Below are positions 22,494-25,400 of a DNA stretch of 32,000 nucleotides, one piece after another. Position 1 is the stretch's first letter, and every line of letters starts with the position of its first letter. This stretch comes from Candidatus Thorarchaeota archaeon (GTDB lineage: Archaea; Asgardarchaeota; Thorarchaeia; Thorarchaeales; Thorarchaeaceae), in contig PRDJ01000001.1 of NCBI GenBank assembly GCA_003345555.1, forward strand, positions 71,528 to 103,527. The letters run 5' to 3'. Position numbers and translations under genes: made by a program. The notes beneath the pieces are model-generated. The model was not told where the DNA came from and made no database searches. It was given only the letters and a program-made list of their open reading frames with translations.

Positions 22494-25400
22494 CTACACT
22501 CCTCCAATCGTCCGGCTTACTTTGTCGAATCTCTTTCTGGCTTCTTCAAGACCTTTCATCAGTCCTCTCAGGGTCTCAATCTTTTGCACTCTATCCAAAT
22601 CCGCTCTGTGAATCAGCTCCTCCATCTGGATGAATGCAGCCAGAAGATTATTGAGCGAGTTGTCTATCTCCCGTTCCAGCTCGGGGTCTAATTCGGGGAT
22701 TCTCATCTTTCTTTTTCTTCGGACTCTGTTGACTGTCAGTACAAGGATGGTGGATCCAAAGACTCCAACGGATGTCAATACAGCAACCTGAAGCATTGTC
22801 AGCAGTGCTCCGAATCCCCCATTTGTTGTAGTTGTTGTGGGTACAAACAGGTCGAAGACAACGCCAGCGAACGTACTCGCGTATTCCTGAGTCTTCATGA
22901 TTATGAAAATGCCGTAGACCCTTCCCGCAGAGCTGTAGTAGCTCGGCGTGAACTGCGAAGAATACAATCCCTCTTGCACGAAGCCGGCAATGAAGAACGC
23001 GAGACTGCCATTTGGCAGCTTGAACGCTATGAAAATCGTGAGATTGTTGACAGGATTCCCCTCGTAGTCAGACACGCGAAGGTTGATGTAGACGCTTCTG
23101 CCCACAGGGTAGCTCGTAGTATTCTCTGCCAAGCTGGTCGTACACGTGAGAGTGTTCGCTAGAAGATACTCATTCAGGTTGTCCAGAAGAAGAGTATTGT
23201 TGCATTTTGGCAGGTTCTTGTTCATGAATATGCGCGAGGAGCCAAACAGTACAAGGTCTGGAGGACTTTGGTCGACCAGCACTACTGGCATGCTATGCAG
23301 AGTTACTGCGGAATTGGATTGATTGTTGAGTACGTATGTACCTCCGCCAAGCCACACATACTCTAGGCCATGTCCAAGCGGAGAGCTCTGGACTATCTCA
23401 CTGGTGTTCTCTTCGGTGTGCTTGCCCGACATGACGTAGCCATAAGGTGATAGAAGAAGATTAAGCGCAGTCAGGTTGGCTCTTCCCTCGTAATCGCCGA
23501 ATATAACGAGTCTTCCACCATCTGCAGTGAAGTTTCTCATCAGATCTATTTCCGTTGAATTGAACTCCTTCGAAGGGCTCACTATGAAGATAGTGGAGAA
23601 TTGAGAAAGGAGCTCTGCTGTAGGAGAAACACCCGGTGTTTCTATGAGATCGAGTCCTCTTAGCGCCATCGACCGTTTCATCTCAGACAAACCTGAGAAT
23701 GTTGTCAGTCTCATTTGCTCAAGTAGGTCCGAGATTGAGCTCAGGTCGCTCAAGCTGGCCAAGCCGAGAGAAAGTCCTACAGAATCCCCGCTAGTCTGAG
23801 TGCTGGACAATTCGGACTGCCCAGTCAGCCCGAAGCTTAGGCCTCCTCCATGAGACGTGTCCATGAGCATCATTGCTCTCGGGTATTGGAGTCTTCGTTC
23901 CAGCGTGATGTTGGCTGTCCATCCATCATCCGTGTATATTTGGTAATCACACCTATGATAACCGTCCGGAGTTATGCTAGGTACAAATAGGAAGAGAGAG
24001 AAGTTGTAGTATCCTTCTACAGAATCCTCCGCTGGCAAAGTAATGTTTCCCCAGTCACTCGCGTTGCCGTATTTTGCGACGCTGACATTTCCCAGAGGCA
24101 CGTTTGTTGACAGCGAGAATGTATACAGTCCAAAATCAGAGGGAAACTGTATATCAAATGGTGCAAACGGGAGAAGCCTAGGAAACACGGACGTCGATGG
24201 GATTGGTGTAACAACGAATAGGTCCCTTAGAAGGAAGTCGTCTAGGAGGCCGACACCGCTCGTTGCCAGCATCGCTGCAGGATTGGCGAAGAGAGCCACA
24301 GCGAATTCAATCCCGGCCGCGACAACCCATGCAGCTGAGTACAACCCGTTCGCCGCCGGGCTCCATTCCGTAGTCAGTATTTCCGCATGAAACGGCTTCA
24401 CTTCAGAATATGTGTAGAATCTGCTGAAGATGGTTCCGCCGCCTGTTCCTCCCTGCCCCACGATCATGGCTCCGACCGCTTGTGATGTGTTTGCTCCGAC
24501 ATTCATTATGATGGCTCGAGACTGATATGTCTGCCCTGCGATTGCGACTCTCGGTATATCTGCCTCAATAACTATGAGGTCACCCCGACCAGCAAACTGC
24601 GTTGACGGACTGAGACGCCACATTGTACTGATACACGTATCAAGCATCGTTCTATTCTCAGCATAACCCATTGCGACTGTGAGATTCACTGGAGTGTCAG
24701 GATAGACGACTCCAAAGTCCCATTTCGCCGCGAGCCCCACAGTCCCGTCGAAGCTTGTCGAACTCGATAAGTTGTCATTGGAGACGTGAGATGATATCGT
24801 GGATGAGTTGCCAACCTCAAAGCTATTGAGCGAACGACTTGAGTTAAGGCCGAAGTAGAAGGACTTGTAGTCACTTGAAATGCTGTATGCAAACAACTCT
24901 TTGTTCTGAAGCGCGAACTTCCCGTGATCAATCTCGCCATCAAGGAAGAGGTCTAGCGAGAATGACAAGAACAGACTCACGTTGGAAATCTGCCTATCGC
25001 CTAGGTTAAGTATGAAGGGCGTCACCTTGAATCCTGTGATTGGATTTGGGTCAGTCAAGGTGAGGTTATACGACTCGACCAACAGGATGACGTACAAGGA
25101 ATCATAGGAGAGGACTCCAATCCATCTGTTGTAGCCGTTGATGCCAGAGCTCATCACCACCTGATGGAGTTCTCTTTTCACGTTGAATTCCATCAGGTTC
25201 GTCGGGCTCCTGTTCTCCCATCGAAGCGAGAACATTCCCATGAGGAGGTGGACGCTTGCGTTTTGCGCTGCTCTCTGATCAAGTGCTACGACGGAGGTTC
25301 CGAAGCTGCTCATCAATATGGTCGTGGAGGCGCCCCGTCCTTGTGTTGAAAGCAGACCGTATGCGACGAGCGGAATTCCTGTGGTCCTGTTGTGCGGTTC

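Follow-up and report, generated by a model that had tools for sequence, protein, structure and literature searches.

Site-1 protease (S1P, also known as MBTPS1 or SKI-1) is the human Golgi protease in control of SREBP and ATF6 signalling; the eukaryotic oligosaccharyltransferase has OST48 among its essential subunits. Accessory proteins of ATP-binding cassette (ABC) systems are exemplified by NosD on NosFY and GldG on GldAF. S1P is composed of propeptides, a peptidase S8 (subtilase) domain, a P-like subdomain, a GIFT subdomain (617-998) and a transmembrane (TM) helix (PMC11231238), and homologues of WBP1 (OST48) have been reported in Heimdallarchaeia by Eme et al. 2023 (PMC10307638). No description of a prokaryotic relative of S1P was found in the literature searched. 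Here we analysed a gene of Candidatus Thorarchaeota archaeon, located in a 32,000-nt stretch of contig PRDJ01000001.1 (the window), whose open reading frame (ORF) of 22494..26834 on the minus strand encodes a 1446-aa protein (S8-GIFT). The original prediction was that this protein joins the layouts of S1P (subtilase-GIFT-TM) and OST48 (GIFT-Ig-TM) in a GldG-like ABC context; the two layouts, as quoted there, agree with PMC11231238 and with our fold matches. Positions given below are those of the window and, for its features, of the minus strand; residues are those of the 1446-aa protein, unless numbering of a model is stated.

As judged from its sequence, the S8-GIFT product is a single-pass surface glycoprotein, whose conservation extends beyond Thorarchaeota to several other Asgard lineages. 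Binding, not cleavage, is its most likely activity, since its protease site appears dead and its gene travels with those of an ABC transporter. We consider it probable, although far from certain, that the protein is a non-catalytic, GldG-like extracytoplasmic accessory subunit of an ABC-2 machine, comparable in this to NosD on NosFY. The ectodomain contains 30 N-glycosylation sequons, with none in the TM helix or the tail, and the cytosolic neighbours have 0.2-0.5 per 100 aa; this density and distribution argue that the ectodomain is exposed outside the cell.

The S8 domain (residues 141-470; 25425..26414) was recognized by a Pfam Peptidase_S8 match to residues 165-455 (E 4.5e-41), by HMMER alignments and by a census of 143 family members, and it is catalytically degenerate. 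Alignments with Tk-SP of Thermococcus kodakarensis and with subtilisin revealed that D174 and H217 are kept, and that T414 and D311 occupy the positions of the nucleophile Ser221 and of the oxyanion Asn155, respectively. Across the family the nucleophile position holds Ala (70 members), Thr (60), Ser (10) or other residues (3), and the oxyanion position is Asp in 143/143 and Asn in none; the catalytic Asp32 is kept in 135/143 members and His64 in 132/143. We regard the S8 domain as a pseudoprotease across the long S8-GIFT family. It is nevertheless the best conserved domain of the protein (identity of 69% with close relatives and 45% with distant ones, compared with 51-64% and 23-27% for the other extracellular domains), and such conservation of a dead domain is typical of pseudoenzymes that are retained for binding. 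The CspC/CspA pseudo-subtilases of Clostridioides difficile (6MW4, 9PR9) are similar in that the S8 fold is retained for non-catalytic binding or signalling after loss of the triad, but they belong to a spore germination context and have neither a GIFT domain nor a membrane anchor. Residue D311 (25902-25904) is a fixed Asp, while the nucleophile site drifts among Thr, Ala and Ser. The invariance of this replacement suggests that the site has acquired a new role, e.g. cation or ligand binding, rather than having undergone simple decay.

The closest S8 domain and propeptide by sequence are those of Tk-SP (3AFG, 9UES; E 1e-42), which also carries a C-terminal beta-jelly-roll domain but, unlike the window protein, is an active secreted protease without GIFT or TM. 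The family S8 profile scored 278 bits against Tk-SP, 178 against subtilisin BPN' and 144 against S1P; structure-based identities were 36% for Tk-SP, 37% for subtilisin BPN' (270 aa, 1.8 A) and 23% for S1P, the latter over all three domains. The subtilase propeptide (I9-like; residues 45-140; 26415..26702) was assigned from the family profile, which matches the Tk-SP pro-form (chain 26-418) from position 48, and it is preceded by an N-terminal signal peptide or anchor (residues 1-44, hydrophobic at 11-36; 26703..26834), as indicated by hydropathy and the ORF list.

The ABC genes form an operon with the S8-GIFT gene, in which the abutting or overlapping genes follow the order ABC-2 permease, 559-aa ATPase, S8-GIFT, 331-aa ATPase and a 2255-aa propeller/TSP3-repeat protein. 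The permease (391 aa; 28538..29713), first of the module, was identified by Pfam (ABC2_membrane_3, E 3.5e-23) and synteny, and the 559-aa ATPase (26835..28514), which has an N-terminal extension of ~240 aa, by Pfam (ABC_tran). The S8-GIFT gene has a TTG start and abuts the upstream ATPase gene, and its stop overlaps by 14 nt the gene of the second ABC ATPase (331 aa; 21512..22507; ORF list, Pfam, synteny). The permease and both ATPases adjoin the S8-GIFT gene in 9 of 12 loci fetched from 9 family-level lineages, in some of them in a divergent or rearranged order.

More than 100 homologues of the S8-GIFT protein, at 52-85% identity, are source-named Thorarchaeota, and distant full-length relatives are source-named Helarchaeota, 'Ranarchaeia' or Promethearchaeota. 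A survey of 400 Asgard genomes (f-numbers denote family-level lineages) detected the C-terminal part in 116 of them (E<=1e-5). With the own genome excluded, it was present in f1 (75/85), f2 (1/1), f14 (16/19), f15 (5/5), f16 (6/6), f17 (3/3), f19 (2/2) and f20 (1/1). Another five matches, weaker and partial, fell in f12, f23, f26 and f33, and no match was obtained in f22 (0/135), f8, f10, f11, f13 and f21. The ATPase N-extension was present in f1 (80/85), f2, f14 (17/19), f15 (5/5), f16 (6/6) and f17 (3/3), and in the same survey there was none in f22, f8, f11 and f13. This near-identical pattern of presence and absence makes the extension a candidate docking partner for the cytoplasmic tail of S8-GIFT. 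The GldG-like ABC context that had been proposed is therefore a conserved one, by synteny as well as by the matching phyletic pattern. As separate observations, the N-extension itself (27795-28514) gave only a weak TrmB-like Pfam match, and one f19 copy of S8-GIFT (L035; G128:C1:155531-156625) contains an in-frame TAA within its C-terminal part, which may reflect a pseudogene or an assembly error.

The S8-GIFT protein would thus probably form an external accessory component of the permease and the two ATPases. The disabled cleft would bind a peptide, perhaps a client protein or the propeptide itself, left uncleaved; glycan would be bound by GIFT and the supersandwich (see below); and coupling to the ATPases, with relay of ATP-driven movements, would take place through the TM helix and the conserved cytoplasmic tail. 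GldG and other ABC_transp_aux proteins (PF09822) share with S8-GIFT a GIFT domain within a large extracytoplasmic region and the adjacent genes of an ABC-2 permease and ATPase; the hydrophobic segments at both ends of the window protein (11-36 and 1340-1369) also resemble GldG-type double anchoring. S8-GIFT differs from GldG in being archaeal, in its pseudoprotease and several beta-domains, in its two distinct ATPases and in having no link to gliding. Several observations weigh against an accessory role of this kind: (i) the score of the window protein with the ABC_transp_aux (GldG) hidden Markov model (HMM) is below threshold; (ii) the ABC genes are not adjacent in two lineages, f15 and f17 (three of the 12 loci); (iii) the ATPase N-extension was not found in f19 and f20 with the window query; (iv) the 10 of 143 family members with Asp-His-Ser may retain residual activity; and (v) the inter-domain arrangement described below derives from prediction and not from a solved structure. 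As to the second point, f15 and f17 do encode the N-extension, on contigs other than those with the S8-GIFT gene, i.e. there is co-occurrence without linkage.

The C-terminal module, comprising the last ~460 aa of the ORF, corresponds to the region 22494-23880. All the motifs that had been quoted for it were found in the ORF translation, and the region had been placed correctly, although its end coordinate misses the reading frame by two bases, residue 985 starting at 23882. The module consists of (i) a GIFT domain (residues 985-1228; 23151..23882) with a low-complexity Gly/Ser loop at ~998-1035, identified by structure and profile matches, (ii) a macroglobulin/Ig-like beta-sandwich stalk (1229-1335; 22830..23150), (iii) a TM helix (1340-1369; 22728..22817), seen in the model and in hydropathy and followed by the basic stop-transfer RVRRKRK, and (iv) a conserved helical cytoplasmic tail (1370-1446; 22497..22727) with the motif IPELD..IDNxLNxLLA, defined by the family alignment and by helices in the model. 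This tail of ~75 aa, whose identity is 61% among close kin and 28% among distant kin, was absent from the original prediction.

When the whole 1446-aa protein was compared with Pfam, all GIFT-type matches were sub-threshold. With the C-terminal part alone, IFT52_GIFT passed its cut-off (29.9 bits against 27.2), and DUF4350, ABC_transp_aux and MBTPS1_4th gave sub-threshold matches (for the window protein, 17.7 bits with a cut-off of 34.7 for ABC_transp_aux, and 13.9 with a cut-off of 27 for MBTPS1_4th). Scanning of 24 family members (E<0.1) yielded matches to IFT52_GIFT and ABC_transp_aux in all 24 (best value for the latter, 1.3e-10), to DUF4350 in 20 and to MBTPS1_4th in 8 (best, 3.7e-7). MBTPS1_3rd was not detected in the scans of the window protein and of these members, none of the 24 matched OST48_N (PF03345) at E<=0.1, and a genome-wide search of the window's own genome with OST48_N gave no match at E<=0.001. 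Of the families that had been suggested for comparison, the Pfam scan of the C-terminal part thus recovered IFT52_GIFT, found DUF4350 and MBTPS1_4th at sub-threshold level, and did not recover OST48_N. A profile of the C-terminal part matched IFT52 (E 6e-13) in the PDB, then S1P (0.004) and OST48 (1.8).

In an AlphaFold2 (AF2) model of residues 975-1446 (pLDDT 82), a long TM helix links an alpha/beta domain and a beta-sandwich to two cytoplasmic helices. In a Foldseek search the model matched best Wbp1/OST48 (6C26_B, 6S7T_G; E ~1e-12 to 1e-13), over ~390 columns, i.e. the whole OST48 chain, followed by IFT52 and S1P. A second, independent structural aligner gave Z scores of 22.5 for IFT52 (192 aa, 2.2 A), 18.6 for OST48 (328 aa), 17.5 for S1P (199 aa, 22% identity, chain 619-874) and 15 or less for generic GATase1 folds. 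The GIFT identity of the domain is borne out by the Pfam IFT52_GIFT match and by this structural ranking; a generic GATase1 domain was ruled out, since GIFT members rank higher both in structure and in sequence. The unit described earlier as Ig-like is indeed a beta-sandwich, but of the macroglobulin/invasin type (Z about 11 to macroglobulin and invasin domains), and it aligns with the second lumenal domain of OST48-like proteins. The N-terminal GIFT domain of IFT52 (5FMS) is the best single-domain match by both structure and profile, but IFT52 is a cytosolic subunit of intraflagellar transport without protease, beta-sandwich or TM. An exhaustive single-sequence search with the C-terminal part returned 44 proteins; all the source-named matches bearing S8 were Asgard, and none of ten further GIFT matches examined carried S8.

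Between the S8 and GIFT domains lie three beta-domains. A 'supersandwich' (residues ~486-743; 24606..25379; model 352-609) resembles the N-domain of glucoamylase/glucodextranase (1ulv_A, Z 21.6 over 229 aa; 9ju0, Z 21.6). It is followed by a second beta-sandwich (~753-839; 24318..24578) and two helices (842-858), assigned by DSSP of the model, and by a P-like beta-sandwich that adjoins S8 (~867-984; 23883..24236), assigned by alignment with the C-terminal domain of Tk-SP, which extends up to model residue 842, and by superposition of S1P. For the middle region the ESM Atlas returned weak leads only, such as a CARDB-like match of the second beta-sandwich (0.82), and the S8-to-stalk stretch ranked a eukaryotic S1P cluster second (0.83), which is also a lead only. 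The likeness of the supersandwich extends to the N-domains of GH15 glucoamylases and GH94 phosphorylases (Z ~21.6), and the domain holds several family-invariant residues, two His among them, which hints at a possible role in carbohydrate binding.

A template-free model of residues 135-1334 (pLDDT 85, pTM 0.84) suggests that S8, the two inserted beta-domains, the P-like domain and GIFT pack as one compact body, arranged as in S1P. The two top matches of this 1200-aa model in a Foldseek search of the PDB were S1P structures (9CSD, E 7.7e-27; 8UW8, E 8.8e-25), and with the second aligner 584 of 738 S1P residues were superposed (8UW8_A, chain 190-874; 4.7 A, Z 41.3, 23% identity). S8 and GIFT are together too short to account for 584 residues, so part of the S1P P-like subdomain must also be aligned. 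The predicted S8/P-like/GIFT core thereby superposes on S1P as one rigid body. S1P (8UW8, 9CSD) and the window protein share, in the same order, a propeptide, S8, P-like and GIFT domains, a single TM and a basic cytosolic tail. The window protein differs in its degenerate triad and oxyanion hole, in ~370 extra aa between S8 and the P-like sandwich (the supersandwich and the further beta-sandwich), in its macroglobulin-like stalk and 75-aa helical tail, and in its ABC-2-linked gene. The proposed likeness to S1P is thus seen in the arrangement of the domains, but in S8 the triad and the oxyanion Asn are degenerate and the sequence is nearer to Tk-SP and subtilisin.

The own genome also encodes, on contig C37, a 964-aa paralogue (L087:8588-11482:-) with a signal peptide, propeptide, S8, a spacer of ~150 aa, DUF4350/GIFT, Ig-like domain, TM and basic tail. 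Its S8 motifs are intact (DTG, HGT, GN, GTS), the triad and oxyanion Asn are invariant in 27 relatives, and its family comprises 118 clusters, nearly all of which, of those named, are Thorarchaeota. In profile alignments its GIFT-Ig part matched the window family with 99.2% (E 2.9e-19) and the OST48-like family (see below) with 97.7% (E 2.4e-12). In size and predicted chemistry this paralogue is a closer analogue of S1P than the window protein. Relatives of 800-1300 aa with S8, spacer, GIFT and TM occur in at least five more Asgard lineages at family level, f3, f4, f6, f8 and f30 (L100-L105); clear intact catalytic motifs were seen in 4 of the 6 examined, and one ends in a cytoplasmic zinc ribbon. 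As the intact paralogue and these relatives share the S8/GIFT/TM layout, the window protein appears to belong to one derived branch, dead and coupled to ABC genes, within a broader set of Asgard S8-GIFT proteins. A tree built from the S8 domains of Asgard members groups the long pseudoprotease family in a single clade (100/99) but leaves its placement among the intact S8-GIFT proteins unsettled; the non-GIFT outgroups are long-branched. Two more large S8 genes, L087:4139-7321:+ (1060 aa) and L087:13518-18338:+ (1606 aa), flank the paralogue and make contig C37 a three-gene subtilase cluster. Contig C65 carries L086:892-2817:-, whose 642-aa product, with a weak DUF4350 match, an N-terminal signal, a C-terminal TM and an RRR tail, is a predicted further membrane-anchored GIFT-like protein.

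The likeness to S1P may instead be convergent, a Tk-SP-like subtilase with its beta-jelly-roll having been fused independently to GIFT-Ig-TM, in which case the protein would be silent on the origin of S1P. We consider this explanation somewhat unlikely, though it accounts for the higher S8 profile scores (278 and 178 bits, against 144) and structure-based identities (36-37% against 23%) with Tk-SP and subtilisin BPN' than with S1P, for a GIFT sequence nearer to IFT52 (6e-13) than to S1P (4e-3), and for the fact that the S8-GIFT family was not found in the lineages carrying OST48-like genes. It is opposed by the superposition of all three S1P ectodomain subdomains in one body (584 aa, 4.7 A), by the S8-to-GIFT spacing of ~150 aa in intact Asgard relatives, which matches that of S1P (PMC11231238), and by the pairing of S8 with GIFT, which among the GIFT relatives examined occurs only in Asgard proteins.

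Coupling to the last gene of the operon raises the question of whether S8-GIFT is devoted to the export, anchoring or folding of the 2255-aa calcium-binding adhesin-like protein that this gene encodes. The genes are tightly coupled, and the giant gene follows the module in 3/3 loci examined from the Thorarchaeia order; however, it is linked to the module only in this order and is in the neighbourhood in none of the other lineages that keep the four-gene module, which makes such a dedicated function quite unlikely.

Asgard genomes also encode free-standing OST48-like proteins of 420-460 aa, which match OST48_N (16/16 at E<0.01; best 52 bits with a cut-off of 36). As in eukaryotic OST48, they begin with a signal peptide and end with a TM and a short tail rich in Lys. 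One of them is source-named Hodarchaeota, in agreement with the WBP1 reports of Eme et al. 2023, and a profile search with their alignment returned only 8 proteins, all Asgard. Two longer variants (L046, L047), of about 585 aa, have cytoplasmic tails that are long and acidic. HHalign comparison of the S8-GIFT C-terminal part with the 16 OST48_N-positive proteins (99.6%, E 2.1e-24, 333 columns) extended end to end: the alignment starts at the first strand of GIFT, takes in the beta-sandwich and the TM, and ends at the basic stop-transfer. The OST48-like GIFT-Ig-TM layout, which had been put forward as a resemblance, is thus a matter of homology. OST48_N matches occur in f11, f13, f33 and other lineages, with none in f14-f17, f19 and f20 and 3 weak ones among the 85 genomes of f1, and in the 400 genomes S8-GIFT was not found in the OST48-like carriers f11 and f13, f33 being among its weaker partial matches. 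The two distributions are therefore nearly complementary, and from this non-overlap, together with the source names of the matches, we infer that S8-GIFT is absent from Heimdallarchaeia.

The C-terminal module might be the equivalent of the OST48/WBP1 subunit of oligosaccharyltransferase wherever the stand-alone gene is lacking. The HHalign result across GIFT, beta-sandwich and TM, the top rank of OST48 among the Foldseek matches of the C-terminal model and the nearly complementary distributions are what this explanation would predict, but we find it very unlikely. The S8-GIFT gene shows ABC-2 synteny and co-occurrence and is not in an AglB/STT3 context, whereas ABC neighbours are lacking for OST48-like genes in 11 of 12 loci, and are seen in none of the 11 with a clear context; the OST48_N HMM was matched by no member tested; the tail is long and helical instead of the short KKxx tail of OST48; and the complementary pattern may just follow phylogeny. 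The module of S8-GIFT differs from OST48 also in its position behind ~980 aa of subtilase and beta-domains. Linkage to ABC genes likewise led us to reject, as the main explanation, that S8-GIFT is the Thorarchaeal orthologue of WBP1.

Finally, a working S1P-like enzyme that cleaves membrane-anchored surface substrates, possibly with Thr414 as nucleophile, is highly improbable. S1P is the best structural match of the whole model, Asp174 and His217 are conserved (135/143 and 132/143) and a propeptide is present; but just 10 of the 143 members have Ser as the nucleophile residue, against 70 with Ala and 60 with Thr, the oxyanion residue is Asp in all of them, and His or Asp is lost too in several.

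The S1P-type combination of subtilase, P-like domain, GIFT and membrane anchor is already present in Asgard archaea, where the same GIFT-Ig-TM module also occurs free-standing in the OST48-like proteins. It is conceivable, although unlikely, that an Asgard superfamily of S8/P-like/GIFT/Ig/TM proteins, with intact and dead members, was the stock of both S1P and OST48/WBP1, and that in the ABC-coupled pseudoprotease of the window the module still performs an older function, as an external accessory part of a membrane machine. If this were true, S1P would have kept the protease half and lost the Ig stalk, and OST48/WBP1 would have kept GIFT-Ig-TM alone. The occurrence of both the S1P-type combination and the free-standing module in Asgard archaea makes the origin of S1P and OST48 testable by trees and structures. 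Ancestry aside, a strongly conserved dead protease tied to an ABC-2 system with two ATPases would represent an uncharacterised type of archaeal cell-surface machine.

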